Assembly: GCA_903929485.1 (NCBI GenBank)
Contig: CAIYUY010000021.1
Location: 830 to 64,829, forward strand
Direction of reading: 5' to 3'
Length of the DNA: 64,000 nucleotides
Source of the DNA: an uncultured Desulfuromonadales bacterium
Lineage (GTDB): Bacteria; Desulfobacterota; Desulfuromonadia; Geobacterales; CAIOGM01
Below the pieces are notes generated by a model that worked only from the letters and a program-made list of their open reading frames with translations, searched no databases and was not told the DNA's origin. Below, piece after piece: positions 2,921 through 59,156 of this stretch (its first letter is position 1; every line of letters starts with the position of its first letter). Made by a program: the position numbers and the translations under genes.

Positions 2921-3060
2921 GCTGATCCTTGCTTCGACTACGCTCAGCACAAGTCGCTTGGGATGACAAGCAAGGGACAGGATGCAGCGCTCCAGGGGCT
3001 CTTCCGCAACCATTGTCAATTATCAATTATCCATTGTCCATTGCCAATGGTACATTGTCC
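2921..3060. repeat. Composite REP-like module (ttcgacTACgctcag motif followed by caattatcaatt/ccattgtccattg short repeats)
   Basis: Related motif pairs recur at 52561-52640 and 53486-53550. The ORFs here (2813-3157) look like repeat translations. Confidence 0.6.
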
Positions 3061-3153
3061 CGCAAATGCCGATTGCTCATGCGCGGTGTTCCTGATACGC
3101 TGTTTTCTCTTTCATGAATACGGGAGGAACGGCGTCATGGGCAGGCATACGGT

Positions 3154-3783
3154 ATGAGCTTCAACGAAAACAGCCGGGTGAAAATCCCCGCTATACTCCA
3201 CTTATGTCGTCTGGGCTACGTCTACCTACCCCTGTCCGGAGCCGACCGCCATGAAAGCACGAACATTTTCACCGGGATCTTTGCCGAGAGCATCCGGCGG
3301 ATCAACCCGGACATGGAAGAAGGAGACGTCAAGAGAGTGTTGGTAGATATCTCCCTGGCCCTGGAGAATGAGGAACTGGGTGAGGCATTTTACCGGATGC
3401 TCACCGCCCGTTTCGGGGTGAAGCTCATGGACTTCGACAACCTGAAGCGGGAGCATTTTATCTCCCGGCGGCATAACCGGCGGAACGAAGGGGAGTTCGC
3501 CAAACTCTTTGACGACACCCTGCGTGACATCGCCATCTTCAAAAACGACATCTTTTCCGTGAAGACCGGCACCGGCGCCAAGACCACCCTCTTCGACGAG
3601 CTTTCCAACTACATCACCGACAGCTCCCGGCGGGACGATTTCTGCCGCGCCGTCATCAATCAACTGATGAATTTCAGCTTCGAGAGAATCTTCCACCAGA
3701 AGTTCGATTTTTTCTCCACCATCTTCGAATATCTCATCAAGGATAGAATTACTCCCTCAGCGCCGGGCAGTATTTTGACGTGA
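3154..3783 (+). pseudogene. hsdM: Type I R-M methylase (HsdM-type) N-terminal fragment
   Basis: The N-terminus MSFNENSRVKIPAILHLCRLGYVYL matches the type I R-M N-terminal domain style. The ORF ends right after the DFFSTIFEYLIKD motif, before any SAM-binding or catalytic motifs. Confidence 0.65.
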
Positions 3784-7202: not shown

Positions 7203-8885
7203 TTACTTTGCCCACGAATCCCGCAACGTTACCGTCCGATTAAAAACAGGCTTACCGGGGAGGGAATCCTTCCCATCCACACAGAAATAACCCTGGCGCT
7301 CAAACTGAAACCGCTCCTCCGGCCGGGCGGCGGCCAGGGACGGCTCCATGACGGCGCCGGTCAAAAACTCCGTGGAATCCGGATTGAGAAGACTCTTCCA
7401 ATCGTCTCCCGACGGGTTGGAAACGGTGATGAGCCGGTCATACAACCGGACATCAGCCTGAATGCCATGTCTGGCCGAGACCCAGTGGATGACCCCCTTC
7501 ACCTTCCGGTCCGCTGCCGGACCGCCGGTAAGGGTCTCGCGATCGTAGCTGCAACGGACGGCAGTGACAACGCCGCTTTCGTCTTTCTCCACGCCGGTGC
7601 AGCGGATTATGAAGGCATACCTGAGCCGCACCTCGCTCCCCGGGGCAAGTCGCTTGAACCCCTTCACCGGAACCTCCATGAAGTCATCACGCTCCATATA
7701 CAGTTCCCGGCAGAAGGGAATACTCCGCACCCCCAATTCCGGCCGCTGGGGATGATTGGCCGCGGAGAACTCTTCCGCCAGTTCTTCGGGGTAATTCTCC
7801 ACAATCAGCCTCAAGGGACGAAGCACCGCCATGGCCCGTGGGGCCGCAACATTCAGGTCACTCCTGACACACTCCTCCAGGACGCTCATCTCGATCCAGC
7901 TCCCATTGCGCCCCACCCCGATCTGCTCGCAAAAAGCCCTGATGGAGTCAGGCGTATATCCTCTACGCCGGAGACCATCCAGGGTAGGCATCCGCGGATC
8001 GTCCCACCCGGTGACGTCACCATCCCGGACCAGCTGAAGGAGTTTCCGCTTGCTCATGACCGTATAAGTCAGGTTGAGCCGGGCGAATTCATACTGTCGC
8101 GGATGATACACGCAAAGCTGATCCAAAAACCAGTCATACAGAGGGCGGTGATCCTCGAACTCCAGGGTGCAGATGGAGTGGGTGATCCCCTCAATGGAGT
8201 CGGATTGCCCATGGGCATAGTCGTACATGGGATAGATACACCAGGCGTCACCGGTGTGCGGATGCGGCTCATGAACAATCCGGTACATGACCGGGTCACG
8301 CAGGTTCATGTTGGGGGAAGCCATGTCGATCTTGGCCCGAAGGACCCTGCTCCCATCGGGAAAGTCGCCGGCGCGCATCCTTCGGAAGAGTTCCAGATTC
8401 TCCTCCACGCTCCGGTTCCGATAAGGGCTCTCCTTTCCGGCTTCCGTGAGGGTTCCCCGATATGCCCGCATCTCCTCGGCGGTGAGGTCGTCCACATAGG
8501 CGACCCCTTTCCCGACCAGCTCCTCGGCCCACTGATAAAGTTGCGGAAAATAGTCTGACGCGTGATGGAGATGTTCACCCCAATCGAATCCCAACCACCG
8601 GACGCTACCCTTGATGGAGTCAATATACTCCTGGTCTTCCCTGGCCGGGTTCGTGTCATCCAGACGGAGGTGACACTCTCCGCCGAAGTCCCGGGCCAGA
8701 CCAAAGTTGAGACAGATGGACTTGGCGTGACCGATGTGGAGATAGCCGTTGGGCTCCGGGGGAAAACGGGTGACGATGGACGCATGCTTCCCTGACGCCA
8801 AGTCGTCCTGAATGATATTCCGGAGAAAGTTGGCTGAACCGGCGGCTGCCGTTTCGGTGATATGGTTTTCCGGTGCCATGGTCAT
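7203..8885 (-). CDS. glnS: Glutaminyl-tRNA synthetase
   Basis: [11 protein letters not shown]...[18 protein letters not shown]...RLDDTNP are GlnRS hallmarks. Confidence 0.95.
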
Positions 8886-8901: not shown

Positions 8902-9378
8902 TTATTCTTCCCGCTTCATCAGCGCCACGGCGTGGGCGGCGATCCCTTCGCCCCGACCGGCAAAACCGAGTTCCTCGGTGGTGGTGGCCTTGACGTTAAT
9001 CCGACCCACGTCACAACCGAGGGTAACGGCGATATTTTCGCGCATCTTTTGGACATGGGGCGCCATCTTGGGACGCTGGGCCACGATGGTGGCGTCCAGG
9101 TTTCCCAGGAGATACCCCTCTTTCCTGGCCAACTCCCCCACGTGGGCCAAAAGCTTGAGGCTGTCGGCCCCCTTGAAGCGCGGATCCGTGTCGGGAAAGT
9201 GCCGGCCGATATCCCCCAGGGCCAAGGCGCCAAGAATGGCGTCGGCAATGGCATGAAGCAGCACATCGGCATCCGAGTGCCCCAGAAGCCCCTTTTCCCA
9301 GGGGATATCCACCCCCCCCATGATCAGCTTGCGCCCCTCCACGAGGCAGTGAACGTCATAGCCGTGGCCGATTCTCAT
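8902..9378 (-). CDS. ispF: 2-C-methyl-D-erythritol 2,4-cyclodiphosphate synthase
   Basis: [10 protein letters not shown]...[12 protein letters not shown]... Confidence 0.95.
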
Positions 9379-9392
9379 TCTACTCCCCCTCT

Positions 9393-9499
9393 ATCCACTG
9401 ATTTCACTGAGTACACTGAGTACACTGAAAAACCGATCAGAAAACGAACCATCCACTGATTTCACTGAGTACACTGAAAAACCGATCAGAAAACGAGCC
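9393..9499. repeat. Tandem flank repeat (2 copies, 58 and 49 bp) of the GxxExxY cassette
   Basis: The unit atccactgatttcactgagtacactgaaaaaccgatcagaaaacga occurs twice. The second copy encodes the last residues and the stop of the GxxExxY gene. Confidence 0.85.
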
Positions 9500-9851
9500 G
9501 TTTAACCTGAAGAGTGGGACTACCAAAATTAAGCAGAAGGCCACGCTTACATCCGGTAGCCTTGAGATAATTCAGAAGCTGAGCATGATCCACACTGGTG
9601 AGATTTCCTCTGGCTTTTAACTCCACGATGATCTCACCATAACAGATGAAATCAGCTCGGTATGAACAACTCAATTGCTTATTCTTATAAAAAACAGGAA
9701 GTTGAACTTCTTTCGAATAAGGAATCAGGTAACTGACAAATTCCAGACACAAAGCCTCGCAATAAACTGCCTCAAGAAAACCGTGCCCCAGCTCCCTGTG
9801 AACTTCCAAGGCGGCTCCGATGATAGCATGAGTCTGAAGATCATTGTCCAT
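9486..9851 (-). CDS. GxxExxY-family protein (PD-(D/E)XK-like)
   Basis: MDNDLQTHAIIGAALEVHRELGHGFLEAVY... contains the GFLEAVY motif and ends ...AQLLNYLKATGCKRGLLLNFG. The 262-aa track ORF (to 10274) is read-through of repeats and ispD antisense. Confidence 0.85.
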   Translation of the reverse strand: MDNDLQTHAIIGAALEVHRELGHGFLEAVYCEALCLEFVSYLIPYSKEVQLPVFYKNKQLSCSYRADFICYGEIIVELKARGNLTSVDHAQLLNYLKATGCKRGLLLNFGSPTLQVKRLVF

Positions 9852-9861
9852 ACCGTCTTTT

Positions 9862-9972
9862 CTCAGTGTCCTCAGTGTCCTCAGTGGACAGGCCTCGGGT
9901 TTTCTCAGTGTCCTCAGTGTCCTCAGTGGACAGGCCTCGGGTTTTCTCAGTGTCCTCAGTGTCCTCAGTGGA
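9862..9972. repeat. 42-bp tandem repeat (about 2.6 copies) with a 9-bp sub-repeat cctcagtgt
   Basis: Units start at 9862, 9904 and 9946. The reverse complement (CCACTGAGGACACTGAGGACACTGAGAAAA) resembles the left flank (CCACTGATTTCACTGAGTACACTGAAAAA), so the flanks are imperfect inverted repeats. Confidence 0.85.
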
Positions 9973-10659
9973 TCAATCTTTAAGAAACGCCTCGGCCAGG
10001 ACCAGATCTTCCGGCGTGGTAATCTTGATGTTCCGGTAGTCGCCCAGGACGATATGCACTTCTCGCCCCATCCGCTCCACCAGGGAGGCATCATCGGTCC
10101 CCAGAAATCCTTCCGCATCGGCAATCTCGTGAGCCGCGCGGATGATACCGTAACGAAAAGCCTGGGGGGTCTGAGCCAGCCAGATGGTTTCCCGATTGGG
10201 GGTCTCCCTGACAATGCCGTCCACCACCACCTTGACGGTATCCTTTGCCGGGACCGCCACCAGCGCCCCGTCATATTTCCGAGCCGTGGCCACGGCGTGC
10301 TCCAGGATATGCCGGTTTATGAACGGGCGGACCCCATCATGAATGAGAATAACGGCGTCCTCATCCGTCCCGTCAATGGCGCGCAAACCGTTCAGCACCG
10401 AATGCTGCCGCTCCTTGCCGCCGGGGACAATGGCCCGCACCTTGGTGAAACCATATCGCTCCACTACTTCCATCCGGCAGTAGGGGATCTCCTGCTCCGG
10501 AGTAATAACGTAGATATCGTCCACAAAGGAGGCGGCCTGAAACAGGGCTATGGTCTGCCCCACGACAGGCATACCTCCGATCCGGAGATACTGTTTGTTG
10601 ATTCCCGCCTGCATCCGTTTCCCCATGCCGGCTGCGGGGATGAGCGCGATCACCTTCAT
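9973..10659 (-). CDS. ispD: 2-C-methyl-D-erythritol 4-phosphate cytidylyltransferase
   Basis: [16 protein letters not shown]...; start set at ATG 10659. Confidence 0.9.
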
Positions 10660-15899: not shown

Positions 15900-17014
15900 G
15901 GGGGACGCACATAAGTATATAAGTTTCTATTTAAGGAAAATTTGCCATGCCTCGACACTCTCGCATTGATAGTCCAGACGCTTTGCACCACATAATCTGT
16001 CGCGGAATCGAACGTGGTGAGATATTCAGCGACGACATTGATCGGGATGATTTAGTCACCCGATTAGGGGACATCTTGATCGAGACTTCGACACGCTGCT
16101 ACGCGTGGGCCTTGATTCCCAACCATTTTCATTTGTTACTCCGGACAGGAACTCTTCCGATAGCTAACGTCATGCAGCGTCTTCTTACCGGATACGCTAC
16201 TAAATTCAATATTCGACATAATCGCCATGGGCATCTGTTCGAGAATAGATACAAGTCGATCCTGTGCGAAGAAGAGCCTTACCTTTTGGAGTTGGTTCGC
16301 TATATCCATTTAAACCCATATCGAGCCGGCATCGTTTCTTCGCTTAAAGAGTTGCAGACCTACCGATATTGCGGCCACAGTCGTATACTCAGCCTAAATG
16401 TCGAGCCATGGATGAACGTAAAAGACGTTCTCAATCGGTTCGGTAGACGGATCGATGACTCCCGCAAGGCTTACGAACTCTTTATCGGCGAGGGAGTCGG
16501 TCAAGGCAAACGTAATGACCTTATTGGTGGTGGACTTCTTCGCAGCTCAGGTGGGTGGCGTGGAATCCTGACGGCGAGAGAGGCTGGAATCTTTCTTAAA
16601 AGTGATGAGCGGATACTCGGTAGCAATGACTTCGTTGAAGGTGTGCTTCATGCTACGGATGAAAAGTTAGAAATAATCGAGGGTTATCGCACTACGGGTA
16701 TCGATTTGGAGAGGCTCACCAGTATAGTTTCCAAGATGCTCGGGTGCGATGAGAATGATGTAGCAGCACCGGGTCGACAACCTCAGCGAGTCAGAGCCCG
16801 TAGCCTTTTCTGCTTTTGGGCGGTCCGTGAATTAGGGGTTAATGTGACAACCTTGGCCCGTAGATTTGGCTTGACCCAGCCTGCTATCAGTCTGGCGGTT
16901 ATCCGTGGCGAGAAAATGGCCGTAGAAAACGGCTGGAATCTGAAACAAGTTATTGATGCCGGCGGTAACTCTGCTGCTCGATGAGAGAAACTTATATACT
17001 TATGGGCGTCCCCC
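15900..17014 (+). mobile_element. RAYT/IS200-like unit: Y1 transposase gene bracketed by 29-bp inverted repeats
   Basis: The left arm GGGGGACGCACATAAGTATATAAGTTTCT (15900-15928) matches the reverse complement of 16986-17014 with 1 mismatch. Confidence 0.75.
15947..16984 (+). CDS. HUH/Y1 tyrosine transposase (REP-associated, IS200-like) with a C-terminal DnaA-C-like HTH
   Basis: HUH motif PNHFHLLL, catalytic-Tyr region VRYIHLNPYRAG, and a C-terminal FWAVRELGVNVTTLARRFGLTQPAIS. Confidence 0.8.
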   Translation: MPRHSRIDSPDALHHIICRGIERGEIFSDDIDRDDLVTRLGDILIETSTRCYAWALIPNHFHLLLRTGTLPIANVMQRLLTGYATKFNIRHNRHGHLFENRYKSILCEEEPYLLELVRYIHLNPYRAGIVSSLKELQTYRYCGHSRILSLNVEPWMNVKDVLNRFGRRIDDSRKAYELFIGEGVGQGKRNDLIGGGLLRSSGGWRGILTAREAGIFLKSDERILGSNDFVEGVLHATDEKLEIIEGYRTTGIDLERLTSIVSKMLGCDENDVAAPGRQPQRVRARSLFCFWAVRELGVNVTTLARRFGLTQPAISLAVIRGEKMAVENGWNLKQVIDAGGNSAAR

Positions 17015-17197: not shown

Positions 17198-17455
17198 ATG
17201 GCTACTACGCTGAAACGCACCCAGATGTATTTCCCCGATGATATGCTGCGGCAGATTCGTCAACTGGCAGATAACGAACATTTGTCTATTGCCGAAATAG
17301 TTCGTACTGCTGTCGGGGACTTTCTTGAAAAAAAGAAGAAAAAAAGCGTCGATTGGGATAATGATCCGCTCTGGGGAATCGTAGGTCAGGCAGCCTCAGA
17401 GGACGGTGACCTCTCTGTCAACCATGATGATTATCTTTATGGTGGCAAGCTATGA
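17198..17455 (+). CDS. vapB: RHH-type antitoxin
   Basis: AGGAGG RBS. MATTLKRTQMYFPDDMLRQIRQLADNEHLSIAEIVR. The stop overlaps the vapC ATG (ATGA). Confidence 0.8.
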   Translation: MATTLKRTQMYFPDDMLRQIRQLADNEHLSIAEIVRTAVGDFLEKKKKKSVDWDNDPLWGIVGQAASEDGDLSVNHDDYLYGGKL

Positions 17456-17853
17456 AACTGTTTGTCGACACCTCGGCATGGATGGCGCTGAATGACCTGA
17501 CGGACCAGCATCATGCCGTTGCAGTCGAAAAGTTTGCTCGCATCCGTTCGGAAAAGGTCGAGTTGATCACCAGCGACTATATCCTGGATGAAACTCTTAC
17601 CCTTATCCGTATGCGGACCTTTCATCGGGCGGCCATTGCCTTTGGCGACCTTCTTATGAATAGTGGTGTCGCCAGTTTGGTGTCGATTAGTGACGAGGTA
17701 CGCAGCGCTGCTTTTGTGCTGTTCAAAAAGTATGATGACAAGGATTTGAGTTTTACCGATTGTACCAGTTTTGCCCTGATGAAGCGGTTGAAGGTGCAGA
17801 CCGCTTTTACTTTCGATGGGCATTTTCAGCAGGTCGGGTTCATAATCTGGTAA
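17452..17853 (+). CDS. vapC: PIN-domain toxin
   Basis: MKLFVDTSAW..., ...SDYILDET..., SFTDCTSFALM show the PIN acidic residues. Confidence 0.9.
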   Translation: MKLFVDTSAWMALNDLTDQHHAVAVEKFARIRSEKVELITSDYILDETLTLIRMRTFHRAAIAFGDLLMNSGVASLVSISDEVRSAAFVLFKKYDDKDLSFTDCTSFALMKRLKVQTAFTFDGHFQQVGFIIW

Positions 17854-17876
17854 ATTTAGGACGCGGATAAACGCCG

Positions 17877-18221
17877 ATGCACGCGGATTTAAAACATGAA
17901 AACGTAACCGATGCTATCCTTTGCTGCTTCTATACCGTTTACAATGTCCTCGGGTATGGATTTCAGGAAAAGGTGTGTACGAAAATGCCCTGCAACATGA
18001 AATCACAAAACGAGGGCTTTCTGCGATAACTCAGTCTCCGATTTCTGTCCATTACGCCGGAACATGATGCGCAACTGTTGAATTATCTAAAAGCAACATC
18101 CATCGAAGTCGGATTACTCCTGAACTTCGGTCCAAAACCGGAATTCAGAAGGAAAGCCTTTGATAATGATCGAAAAAACCAGGAAGCAATTGAGTGGCCT
18201 CACTGCGAAGAAAGAGGTTGA
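17877..18221 (+). pseudogene. Decayed GxxExxY gene flanked by inverted repeats GGACGCGGATAAA (17859-17871) and TTTTATCCGCGTCC (18237-18250)
   Basis: MHADLKHENVTDAILCCFYTVYNVLGYGFQEKV is followed by a +2 frameshift at GTGTGT (the corrected frame reads YENALQHEITKRGLSAITQSPISVHY). An internal deletion follows, then EHDAQLLNYLKATSIEVGLLLNFGPKPEF. Confidence 0.8.
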
Positions 18222-18316
18222 TCCGCGTTTATCAGATTTTATCCGCGTCCAACGATTAAATTTTTCAAGTTCCTTAATGGTTTTTCCCGGATGGTATCCT
18301 GTATTTGCCGTGAATA

Positions 18317-18640
18317 ATGTTGGTTTTTGTGAAATCAGCGTATAGTTGTCAGGTCATGAGCGAACTCTCCGTCACGTTGCTCAAGCACCATCTGGCTGAA
18401 GAGAAGATTATTGACATCCTTGAACAGATTGCCGAAACGTTCAATGTAAGCGCGACTACTCTTGAGACGGTGACACGAACCTGGAAGATCAAGAGAAACT
18501 ATCGCTTTTCCTATTGGGACTGTCTTATCGTTGCCGCAGCACTGGAAAATGATTGTACCCTGCTTGCCAGTGAAGACCTTCAGAATGGTCAAATGCTCGA
18601 TAGGAAACTCAGGATTGTGAATCCGTTGGAGCAGAGGTAA
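18317..18640 (+). pseudogene. PIN-domain C-terminal fragment (5'-truncated vapC-like)
   Basis: YRFSYWDCLIVAAALENDCTLLASEDLQNGQ is a PIN C-terminal half. No N-terminal PIN half and no antitoxin are present. Confidence 0.55.
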
Positions 18641-53268: not shown

Positions 53269-53312
53269 GTAAAAACTCCTTGAAGTAGAATGCCCCTGGG
53301 GCGATTACCGAC

Positions 53313-53443
53313 GCCCTCGCAAATTCCGTCATTGCGAGCGAAGCGAAGCAATCCACTGTTTTGCTAACGTTTCAAAATTACAGGGATTGCTTCGTCGCTT
53401 CGCTCCTCGCAATGACTTTTTGTGAGAGAACTCACGAGGGCAT
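53313..53443. repeat. Nested palindromic REP-like element
   Basis: GTCATTGCGAGCGAAGCGAAGCAATCC (53328-54) pairs with GGATTGCTTCGTCGCTTCGCTCCTCGCAATGAC (53384-416), with an outer GCCCTCG/CGAGGGC pair. It yields the spurious FASLAMT ORF 53048-53356. Confidence 0.8.
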
Positions 53444-53485: not shown

Positions 53486-53550
53486 CCTTCGACTTCGCTC
53501 AGGGCGCCGCCTTGATCCGTGTCATCCGTGTCATCCGTGTGCTGGTTTTG
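53486..53550. repeat. cccttcgacttcgctcagggcgccgcc motif followed by the 9-mer atccgtgtc x ~4
   Basis: Read directly. The 9-mer array runs from 53516 to 53550. Confidence 0.7.
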
Positions 53551-58867: not shown

Positions 58868-58900
58868 CGAAATGCATCGAAATGCATCGAATTGCATCGG
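58868..58900. repeat. Three direct 10-bp repeats (cgaaatgcat), the first two containing the ATGCAT palindrome and the third degenerate (ttgcat)
   Basis: gacgaaatgcatcgaaatgcatcgaattgcatcgg, about 260-290 nt upstream of the giant gene start. Confidence 0.6.
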
Positions 58901-59156
58901 TCGAATAGGGGGAAAAAGGGCAAAAAAGCGGAGGTTACCGGCGCTTTGGCGTACCCGCCAAGCCATATGACGGAAGGAGACCGTTGGCCGTTGACCGTTG
59001 TCGACCCGATACGCTTTATGATGGATGGGGATGTTGGGAAGGGGGAGGAAGGCGAACCGGACAACCGTAACTGAGAGATCTTCTCCGTACAGACGAATCG
59101 AAATCTGCTCGTAGGTTGGGGTGAGGCGCGAGCCCCAACGTTATAAAATACCGTTT

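Follow-up and report, generated by a model that had tools for sequence, protein, structure and literature searches.

A 121-amino-acid (aa) gene of the GxxExxY family, bracketed by inverted arrays of short iterated repeats, interrupts the ispD-ispF-glnS-cysS operon in a 64,000-nucleotide (nt) stretch of DNA from an uncultured Desulfuromonadales bacterium (contig CAIYUY010000021.1; the whole stretch is hereafter called the window). Sequence comparison with relatives places the origin of this cassette in the ancestor of a small clade, where ispD took up a 583-bp segment within its last five codons; by the same comparison, the first three bases of the element now act as the ispD stop codon. From then on, the descent of the cassette has been vertical and purifying selection strong, while the arm units changed in sequence and the arms were repeatedly tandem-duplicated. 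The same architecture is found family-wide, in more than 12 phyla: an element of ~0.5 kb in which the gene is bracketed by inverted arms, each made of three or more 7- to 8-bp cores (C-R-C-N-R-A-K) at 9- to 10-bp spacing, with ends of the form (TTA)TCC ... GGA(TAA). Taken together, family membership, architecture, ancient insertion, and vertical descent are conclusions that we hold with high confidence. By itself, the locus is of modest interest; what deserves follow-up is the architecture of the family that it exposes.

The cassette between ispD and ispF

All features of the cassette lie on the minus strand. ispD (2-C-methyl-D-erythritol 4-phosphate cytidylyltransferase; PF01128, E=3e-68; TIGR00453) occupies 10659..9973, and its TGA stop (9975..9973) coincides with the first three bases of the inserted segment. 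The whole element (9975..9393) comprises this TGA, the 5' arms, the GxxExxY gene, and the 3' arms, ending ...CAGTGGAT. In the 5' arm array (9972..9858), three tandem copies of the arm TCCACTGAGGACACTGAGGACACTGAGAAAA follow one another (9972..9931, 9930..9889, and 9888..9858), the first two extended to 42 bp by CCCGAGGCCTG; Tandem Repeats Finder returned a period of 42, 2.7 copies, and 100% matches. A 6-nt linker separates this array from the GxxExxY open reading frame (ORF; 9851..9486; PF13366, TIGR04256). The 3' arm array (9499..9393, a repeat family at 93%) has two tandem units, 9499..9451 (49 bp) and 9450..9393 (58 bp), each composed of the last ORF bases plus an arm: both start with GG[C/T]TCGTTTTCTGA inside the last ORF codons and finish ...AAATCAGTGGAT. 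The inner 3' arm (9481..9451) holds three units and the outer one (9432..9393) four, both in the form TTTTTCAGTG(TACTCAGTG)nAAATCAGTGGAT. Directly after the right end of the element come the ispF ribosome-binding site AGAGGGGGAG, ispF (9378..8902; PF02542, TIGR00151), and glnS (8885..7203), with cysS after it. An earlier note on this DNA had placed a 121-aa GxxExxY gene in the same orientation across the entire ispD-ispF gap, with one repeat directly behind the ispD TGA and the end of the ORF inside the other; the coordinates bear out each of these points.

The two flanks are inverted repeats of each other, with best arms of 28 nt at 89% complementarity and up to 35 nt at 80%. Both Tandem Repeats Finder and a repeat finder thus confirmed what the same note had described as 42-bp and twofold 49- to 58-bp tandem flanks inverted relative to one another. 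That description was correct as to the tandem arrays and could be refined as to the unit: the real repeat is a 9-bp iteration, CACTGAG(G/T)A, three units of which (CACTGAGGA) make up a 5' arm, and entire arms, duplicated in tandem, account for the 42- and 49/58-bp repeats. A 16-mer spanning two of the 9-bp units, CACTGAGNACACTGAG, occurred 11 times at the cassette and nowhere else in the 64 kb, where shuffled sequences led us to expect 0.03 occurrences. We scored as an arm any run of at least three C-R-C-N-R-A-K cores spaced 8 to 12 bp apart, and as a repeat-armed element any gene with a left arm ≤200 nt upstream and the inverse right arm ≤200 nt downstream, with termini TCC.../...GGA. The cassette is such an element, with arms at 9972..9858 and 9481..9393, CACTGAG cores, and termini TCCAC/GTGGAT.

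An assembly artefact or chance slippage, unconnected to the gene, is hardly credible as the source of the tandem repeats. A public contig of the same sequence (L001; such numbers denote the public contigs and loci compared with the window) does break into Ns within the 5' array, which makes the copy number uncertain. However, the arrays flank the gene in inverted orientation, with 11 matches against 0.03 expected, and both 80 unrelated genomes and three independently assembled relatives have homologous arms. The Ns fall at L001:80-180, inside the 5' arm array, the 42-bp array being what breaks short-read assembly.

The exact GxxExxY protein was found on 16 public metagenome contigs, in the ispD-ispF position in all of them. 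Its three nearest homologues (L005, 87% identity; L004, 84%; L002, 82%) also lie between ispD and ispF, and their flanks are homologous to the window arms, though changed. L004 has TCCACAGATTTCACAGATTTCACGGAT upstream of the gene and no tandem array, L005 a partly duplicated CACTGAGAA/CACTGAGGA arm, and L002 three diverged upstream arm copies; the downstream end ...TCAGTGGAT is common to all four lineages and duplicated in the window, L002, and L005. The relatives that share the gene at this place therefore do carry repeats, contrary to an alternative raised in the earlier note, in which they would have had the gene without them. At L002:3800-4000, ispD (234 aa) extends through the first 5' arm copy, so that the element end has been absorbed into the IspD C terminus.

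A metagenome scan with IspF recovered the next tier of relatives (IspF 76 to 80% identical), and the comparison of the ispD-ispF junction that the earlier note had called for yielded two empty sites, L087 and L093 (IspF 77 to 78% and IspD 72% identical to the window). In L087, the ispD stop and ispF start codons overlap (ATGA); in L093, 5 nt separate the two genes. Neither site contains a hairpin; more distant ispD-ispF pairs in the scan were mostly 5 to 50 nt apart. Deletion of 9975..9393 in silico gave an ispD that ends ...AEAFLKDRGGVE*, in which the TGA and the ATG of ispF overlap, and the joined flanks aligned with the uninterrupted L093 junction. The same excision in L004 also restored the ATGA overlap. 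Because relatives have empty sites and excision restores the ispD/ispF overlap, we assign the insertion to the 3' end of ispD. A stop codon supplied to the upstream gene was considered as a general rule and dismissed: it holds here and in L019, L023, L024, and L050 and is not general.

Across the four lineages, the ratio of nonsynonymous to synonymous divergence (dN/dS) of GxxExxY was 0.05 to 0.10 at a synonymous divergence (dS) of 1.1 to 1.5, relative to dN/dS values of 0.05 to 0.08 for ispD and 0.05 to 0.10 for ispF. Amino acid identities of the three proteins rank the lineages in the same relative order. Given the matching dN/dS values and this shared order, GxxExxY has diverged together with its neighbors under equal purifying selection. 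The earlier claim of a cassette inserted into an essential operon is thus upheld by the empty sites and the excision test, whereas the orthologues in L002, L004, and L005 show that the cassette is neither recent nor idiosyncratic as an invader, and its gene is under purifying selection as strong as that on its neighbors. The inverted flanks recur across phyla and are no local oddity; only the tandem amplification is lineage specific, and that recurs at other loci. The GC content at third codon positions is 0.41 to 0.51 in GxxExxY versus 0.55 to 0.77 in ispD and ispF in all four lineages, a foreign composition that persists in the window, L002, L004, and L005 despite synonymous divergence above 1. 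An essential operon of the methylerythritol phosphate pathway and aminoacyl-tRNA synthetases has long tolerated an insert that truncates ispD and supplies its stop.

Iterated arms across the GxxExxY family

We surveyed the flanks of 83 GxxExxY copies in 80 loci, each from a different genome, collected by a genome scan with the family alignment. Carriers belonged to Planctomycetota, Verrucomicrobiota, Acidobacteriota, Chloroflexota, Bacteroidota, Pseudomonadota, and delta-proteobacterial groups, and further to Methylomirabilota, Bacillota, Bdellovibrionota, Calditrichota, Armatimonadota, and Actinomycetota; among them are the cultured Marinilabilia salmonicolor (L069) and Carboxylicivirga marina (L062). 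Upstream, the flank follows the pattern (TTA)TCC-RCAGATT-N-CRCAGATT-NN-CRCAGATT and leads into the ORF; downstream it is the inverse, finishing CTGYGGA(TAA), which gives a terminal consensus of TTATCC|CRCAGATT ... AATCTGYG|GGATAA. Lineages vary the core (CACGAAT, CACAAAT, CACTGAT, and CACGAAG, among others). A correctly oriented arm pair was detected around 58 of the 83 copies, a lower bound given that the C-R-C-N-R-A-K pattern misses additional core variants, and at least one arm beside 74. Arms of at least three units numbered 221 in 456 kb of GxxExxY loci versus 2 in the 328 kb of ispF loci that served, with shuffled windows, as controls; a shuffled window held 0.1.

Several observations bear on how gene and arms are inherited. 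Protein identity was 0.59 between copies from different phyla with the same arm type, versus 0.52 between copies from the same phylum with different arm types. Since protein similarity tracks arm type and not host phylum, gene and arms travel as one unit. The gene is lower in GC than its flanks in 76 of the 80 loci, and in L050, where two paralogues lie 1 kb from each other, each is flanked by mirrored arms of its own. Tandem amplification beside the gene was also seen elsewhere (120 bp ×5.5 in L085, 84 bp ×3 in L053, and an 86-bp hairpin ×4.3 in L007); the window arrays are one instance of a general arm instability. A second case of an orthologous cassette kept at one site across species was noted in Pyrinomonadaceae (L059, L065, and L070, at ~2930 to 3390), where core changes are mirrored between the arms, such that the middle unit of L065 reads CGCCGAT in both.

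The same arms also occur without the gene. In the 80 loci we counted 48 gene-less hairpins, in which a short loop (median, ~25 nt) joins a left arm to a right arm; in L022, the hairpin arms are identical to those of a gene-bearing copy at a distance of 1.8 kb. Hairpins lacking the gene and cassettes with the same arms therefore coexist within single genomes. Arms are far more alike within genomes (median identity, 0.79; 27% at ≥0.9) than between them (0.48; 0.5%). At 0.5 to 3 kb from the gene, arm density was 0.11 to 0.20/kb versus 0.006/kb in control loci (~25-fold), and because it stays this high far from the gene, carrier genomes appear to hold populations of arms. The unit can also expand to a microsatellite-like tract: pure arrays were observed on a giant-virus contig from a metagenome-assembled genome (L186:6150-6330, (GAATCTGTR)n, ~20 copies) and on a viral contig (L209:9017-9077, (TAATCTGCG)7).

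Searches for other contents or other identities of the arms returned little. No recurrent family of other cargo between the same arms emerged from 1.5 Mb of loci: the sole cluster was the antisense shadow of GxxExxY, and three odd ORFs had no Pfam match. Rfam gave nothing at the window locus (E≤10) and nothing above gathering threshold on ten arm-rich loci. GxxExxY was co-oriented with its neighbors in 72 to 76% of cases, no higher than we would expect of bacterial genes generally and hence uninformative. Three other classifications were rejected. A CRISPR-like reading of the arm arrays fails because complete units repeat, "spacers" included; integron cassettes were dismissed on their defining features; and a ToxIN-like type III toxin-antitoxin system, in which solely direct tandem repeats precede a ToxN/AbiQ-family endoribonuclease gene and a terminator lies between them, was set aside given no PADLOC match, no terminator, an inverted partner downstream, and no tandem array in L004.

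The gene product matches PF13366 (PDDEXK_3) at 128.8 bits (cutoff, 22; E=1.7e-37; residues 7 to 118) and TIGR04256 at 139.7 bits (cutoff, 35; E=5e-41; residues 7 to 120). Its motifs are G24-FL-E27-AV-Y30, D67, E77-x-K79, and Q91-xxx-Y95, of which G24-F-L-E27-A-V-Y30, D67, E77-L-K79, and Q91 are invariant in a 32-sequence alignment; E27, D67, E77, K79, and Q91 plus Y95 form what we take to be the RecB-family motif set. An AlphaFold2 model (mean predicted local distance difference test score, 93.5) gave as best Foldseek matches Cas4 (SSO0001, 4ic1), RecE, lambda exonuclease, the AddAB/AdnAB nuclease domains, and MGME1. By this model and its motifs, the protein is a predicted minimal RecB/Cas4-like PD-(D/E)XK nuclease. 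PF13366 is its sole Pfam match, and no recognized transposase family is among its matches. Since neither PADLOC nor PHROGs returned a meaningful match, the protein is not catalogued as a defense or phage gene. The family is large (14,090 clusters at 50% identity, E≤1e-3), and nearly all members are single-domain proteins of 120 to 170 aa. In many homologues, the N-terminal ...NPQISQINAD... and C-terminal ...NLRKSAQSAD extensions are translated flanking repeats. This matters for annotation: arms are routinely translated as ORF extensions, and they break metagenome assemblies. A survey of PD-(D/E)XK proteins lists the function of PF13366 as "unknown" (PMC3424549). Our literature search on GxxExxY found the name rarely mentioned and nothing on genomic context or architecture, and a search by repeat sequence returned primer noise only.

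Constraint on the arms and competing explanations

The two arms of an element covary. The same spacing pattern (9,9 / 9,10 / 10,10) is present in both arms of 62 of 70 pairs. Where core positions vary, left unit i agreed with right unit i at 0.82 and 0.79, relative to 0.74 and 0.70 with its own neighbor unit and 0.54 with non-cognate arms. In the 35 arm pairs whose units are spaced 9,9, pairing held for 84.5% of cells versus 78.7% in shuffles (reached in 0 of 500), double-sided changes were found in 21 pairs versus 13.8 expected, and pairing dropped to 27 to 46% in slid registers. The single-nucleotide spacers between cores were unpaired in 19 of these 35 elements. G.U-type and A.C-type mismatches were about equally frequent (37 versus 48 and 40 versus 43), so that the asymmetry test for selection on a sense-strand RNA gave no signal. 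Given the mostly unpaired spacers and the similar numbers of G.U and A.C mismatches, the constraint is strand symmetric and looks DNA level. What is kept alike on both arms is three 8-bp blocks with free positions between them, a pattern that fits mirrored protein sites on duplex DNA, or a DNA cruciform or gene conversion; a sense-strand RNA helix fits it less well.

The arms may also act in the transcript. A scan of the coding strand within the cassette turned up neither a sigma-70-like promoter nor an intrinsic terminator, so that read-through is the simplest route to expression of ispF-glnS-cysS, in support of the transcription through the cassette that the earlier note had proposed. The predicted minimum-free-energy fold of a 611-nt transcript (z score, −5.4) has two pairings, one between the outer arms of the two flanks and one between the second 5' arm and the inner 3' arm. 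It gives a stem of −44 to −47 kcal/mol at the window cassette and leaves the ispF ribosome-binding site free; predicted arm duplexes range from −36 to −62 kcal/mol in all four orthologues. On these predictions, the insert probably adds an RNase III-type stem to the operon mRNA, and processing of that mRNA at the ispD-ispF arm stem is plausible.

We give about an even chance to a mechanism in which the nuclease recognizes the iterated cores of its own arms, cuts at their ends, and mobilizes or copies the cassette and, in trans, the hairpins. One protomer would contact each helical turn, with cores bound on both arms; the arms would be brought together in a synapse and cut at the TCC/GGA termini, and cutting would mobilize or copy the element as well as its gene-less hairpin derivatives. 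Such a logic would be that of a transposon and its miniature inverted-repeat transposable elements (MITEs), or of a REPIN-RAYT pair, with a different enzyme. GxxExxY would have no promoter of its own and would be transcribed by read-through from the ispD promoter; in the transcript, the arms would pair into a ~30-bp stem, nested as double stems here because the arms are duplicated. By analogy with 23S rRNA intervening sequences, this stem would be a likely RNase III substrate. The long vertical persistence at a dN/dS of ~0.07 points less to a parasite that is actively hopping than to a semi-domesticated state like that of RAYTs.

A number of results weigh against mobilization by the nuclease. 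No direct repeat that would mark a target-site duplication was found at 70 element ends; the ispD-ispF locus itself offers an ambiguous GAT as its only direct repeat, absent in L004 and L005. An orthologous gene held at one site with a dN/dS of ~0.07 and a dS above 1 is unlike a purely selfish transposon copy. Paralogues in the same genome are usually divergent (the remnant elsewhere in the window, described below, is 54% identical over its surviving part and has other arms), no recent bursts were seen, and the 64-kb window contains no gene-less hairpin of the CACTGAG type. Mobile replicons are poor in the gene, which was present in 8 of 72,556 plasmid records and in none of 50,697 isolated phage genomes. 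On IMG/VR viral contigs, an arm-anchored scan of 1.05 Mb found 291 arms and 51 hairpins with no GxxExxY gene, and a protein scan of the same collection found only 7 genes. Because gene-free viral contigs have arms, arms exist without a cis-encoded nuclease, and another protein might be their partner. The protein is a bare nuclease core with no separate DNA-binding domain, and we infer the binding and cutting of arms from the architecture. The promoter scan behind the read-through step was limited to sigma-70-type sites.

Among the explanations that compete with mobilization, we consider rather unlikely one that acts at the RNA level, in which the cassette is of the intervening-sequence type: RNase III would cut the arm stem, the cassette RNA would be excised from the ispD-ispF-glnS-cysS mRNA, and the ORF would be a passenger. 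The strong predicted arm-arm pairing in all four orthologous cassettes and the covariation of the arms speak for it, as do a Coxiella intervening sequence of the same design with RNase III cleavage shown in vitro (PMC4990558) and, in the viral contig L293, a gene for an S23p-like four-helix bundle that is also bracketed by inverted arms of iterated heptamers. However, the two mismatch types are equally frequent and so give no strand-specific sign of RNA, more than half of the elements have unpaired spacer nucleotides, and every unit of L004 contains a central mismatch. A stem would not need a CRCAGAT core conserved across phyla, and excision leaves both the match between protein and arm type and the strong purifying selection on the nuclease unexplained. 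We regard as unlikely that the hairpins are primary and that GxxExxY is a small homing endonuclease, which would cleave empty hairpins and enter their loops when the break is repaired from a gene-bearing copy through shared arm homology. The gene does always sit exactly at the hairpin-loop position, hairpin and cassette arms can be identical within a genome (L022), hairpins are more widespread than the gene (for example, on viral contigs), and homing predicts the absence of target-site duplications. On the other hand, the empty ispD-ispF sites have no hairpin, so arms and gene arrived together at that locus; homing genes fixed at a site normally decay, whereas the window GxxExxY is strongly conserved; and the data are equally compatible with hairpins that arose by internal deletion of cassettes.

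We judge it very unlikely that the arms are host regulatory or architectural sites, bound by IHF/HU or a global regulator, with GxxExxY an ordinary gene under their control. Paired inverted sites of 3 to 5 units in Geobacter metallireducens have been read in this way, as IHF/HU or global-regulator sites (PMC2700814). Arms are also found without the gene. The terminal unit TTATCCACA equals the DnaA-box consensus when R = A, as it is in about one third of cores; this mimicry was noted and not adopted, given that the fit requires R = A and that some two thirds of cores read CGCA instead of the DnaA-box CACA. Host sites are further contradicted by the recurrence of one core sequence alongside one small gene in over 12 phyla and in unrelated genomic contexts, by the polymorphism between insertion and empty site, by the co-inheritance of gene and arms across phyla, and by a gene richer in AT than its host in 76 of 80 loci.

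Relation to known systems and other elements in the window

Bertels and Rainey reportedly described REPIN-RAYT systems in 2011 as REP doublets with REP-associated tyrosine transposases. Like these, the GxxExxY elements place a single small gene between inverted copies of a short repeat, are accompanied by dispersed gene-less hairpin doublets of the same repeat (here 48 hairpins in 80 loci), pass the gene on vertically under purifying selection, and have repeats that are more alike within than between genomes. In contrast, the enzyme here is a predicted 121-aa RecB/Cas4-like PD-(D/E)XK nuclease, whereas a RAYT is an HUH Y1 (IS200-like) transposase; an arm is three iterated 9- to 10-bp units, whereas a REP is a single palindrome; and a genome holds several divergent copies, whereas it has one RAYT. 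Unlike RAYTs, the GxxExxY family spreads across many phyla with clear horizontal transfer.

Insertion sequences and MITEs likewise have terminal inverted repeats of iterated units resembling protein sites, autonomous and gene-less forms with the same ends, and occupied sites that contrast with empty ones (here empty in L087 and L093). Multiple subterminal transposase-binding repeats are typical of transposons such as Tn7, Mu, Ac/Ds, and En/Spm. The cassette differs from all of these in having no recognized transposase family, and neither a target-site duplication nor recent multicopy bursts were seen; at ~0.5 kb, it is also smaller than any autonomous insertion sequence known to us. I-Ssp6803I is a small PD-(D/E)XK homing endonuclease, and enzymes of its type resemble GxxExxY as very small stand-alone PD-(D/E)XK nucleases in a selfish insert that lacks a target-site duplication. 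However, the cassette has no intron or intein context, and its target would be a repeated hairpin instead of a unique gene site.

Intervening sequences of 23S rRNA with an S23p ORF (Leptospira and Coxiella) share the size of ~0.4 to 0.5 kb, an ORF of ~120 aa, a terminal stem of ~28 bp, and tandem xCAGAT units of variable number just upstream of the ORF. Like the cassette, they lie inside a host transcript that needs processing or read-through, and they have long been suspected to be mobile. The Coxiella example is 428 nt long, encodes an ORF of ~120 aa, and has a 28-bp terminal stem cut by RNase III in vitro; three tandem GACAGAT heptamers precede the ORF, in a number that varies between strains (PMC4990558). 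In contrast to these sequences, the cassette sits in the protein-coding ispD-ispF operon and not in helix 25/45 of 23S rRNA, its ORF encodes a nuclease and not a four-helix bundle, its unit period is 9 to 10 nt and not 7 nt, and its ORF is strongly conserved, whereas that of Coxiella is decaying. At L293:1400-1960, the S23p-like gene lies between the heptamer arms GTCGGCATTCGGCATTCGGCGTTCGGCC ... GGCCGAACGCCGACCGCCGAAAGCCGAAAGCC, a design like that of the GxxExxY arms with another unit and period. In Geobacter metallireducens, Aklujkar et al. (2009) described intergenic pairs of sites on opposite strands, with 3 to 5 tandem units of 7 to 9 nt at variable distance from each other (PMC2700814). 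These "global regulator binding sites" resemble the arms as inverted pairs of short tandem units with variable pair distance; their units are different (GTTGCTYN, TCTCCGTS, and MTYCTGA), and they were read as IHF/HU sites and not linked to a nuclease gene or to mobility (PMC2700814).

We found no published description of the repeat-armed GxxExxY architecture. Related phenomena are known (REPIN-RAYT systems, ORF-bearing intervening sequences, MITEs, and the Geobacter paired sites), and the architecture itself is apparently undescribed. It turns an anonymous "hypothetical nuclease" into a testable system with a candidate substrate written beside every gene, and if the nuclease acts on the arms, it would be a new enzyme class among bacterial repeat-mobilizing systems and would link the ORF-bearing rRNA intervening sequences, the Geobacter paired sites, and the unexplained "SAKSAD/NPQISQ" N- and C-terminal extensions in gene calls. 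More tentatively, and as a broader proposal that we would not bet on, the elements may constitute a pan-bacterial, unrecognized class of autonomous mobile element, the smallest at ~0.5 kb, in which a 120-aa RecB/Cas4-like nuclease is the sole "transposase," recognizes the three iterated 9- to 10-bp sites of each terminal arm, and drives large populations of gene-less hairpins in bacteria and phages. If this were true, the class would be a PD-(D/E)XK counterpart of REPIN-RAYT, and both the 23S rRNA intervening sequences with an ORF and the Geobacter paired sites would owe their origin to it.

The window contains further traces of the family, along with other repeats and a transposase-like gene. 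A second, decayed element lies at 17859..18250 on the plus strand, where tblastn aligned residues 83 to 121 at 54% identity and an inverted repeat of 30 nt (83%) was detected. Its arms, GGACGCGGATAAACGCCGATGCACGCGGAT (17859-17888) and ATCCGCGTTTATCAGATTTTATCCGCGTCC (18221-18250), are of a different core type (ACGCGGAT / ATCCGCGT) and surround a frameshifted, internally deleted GxxExxY remnant. It is neighbored by a PIN toxin gene (17452-17853, preceded by an ORF resembling a ribbon-helix-helix antitoxin) and by a PIN-domain ORF (18317-18640). A solo arm of three 9-bp units, GATCCGTGTCATCCGTGTCATCCGTGTG, was picked up by both the arm detector and a periodic scan at 53513..53544 (plus strand), with no partner arm and no ORF; it is intergenic and adjoins the gene for a 1,698-aa repeat-rich surface-type protein. 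About 100 nt before it, another long palindrome, GTCATTGCGAGCGAAGCGAAGCAATCC ... GGATTGCTTCGTCGCTTCGCTCCTCGCAATGAC (53310-53425, plus strand), apparently belongs to a separate hairpin family. Three tandem 10-bp units (GCATCGAAAT GCATCGAAAT GCATCGAATT GCATCGG) occupy an intergenic position at 58868-58901 (plus strand), with no inverted partner found nearby. Finally, a 345-aa ORF (15947-16984, plus strand), which the toxin-antitoxin genes and the decayed GxxExxY element follow ~1 kb downstream, has an IS200-like Y1 transposase domain (PF01797, E=1.7e-08) within residues 1 to 120 and then a long C-terminal extension; it could be a RAYT-like or domesticated Y1 transposase.

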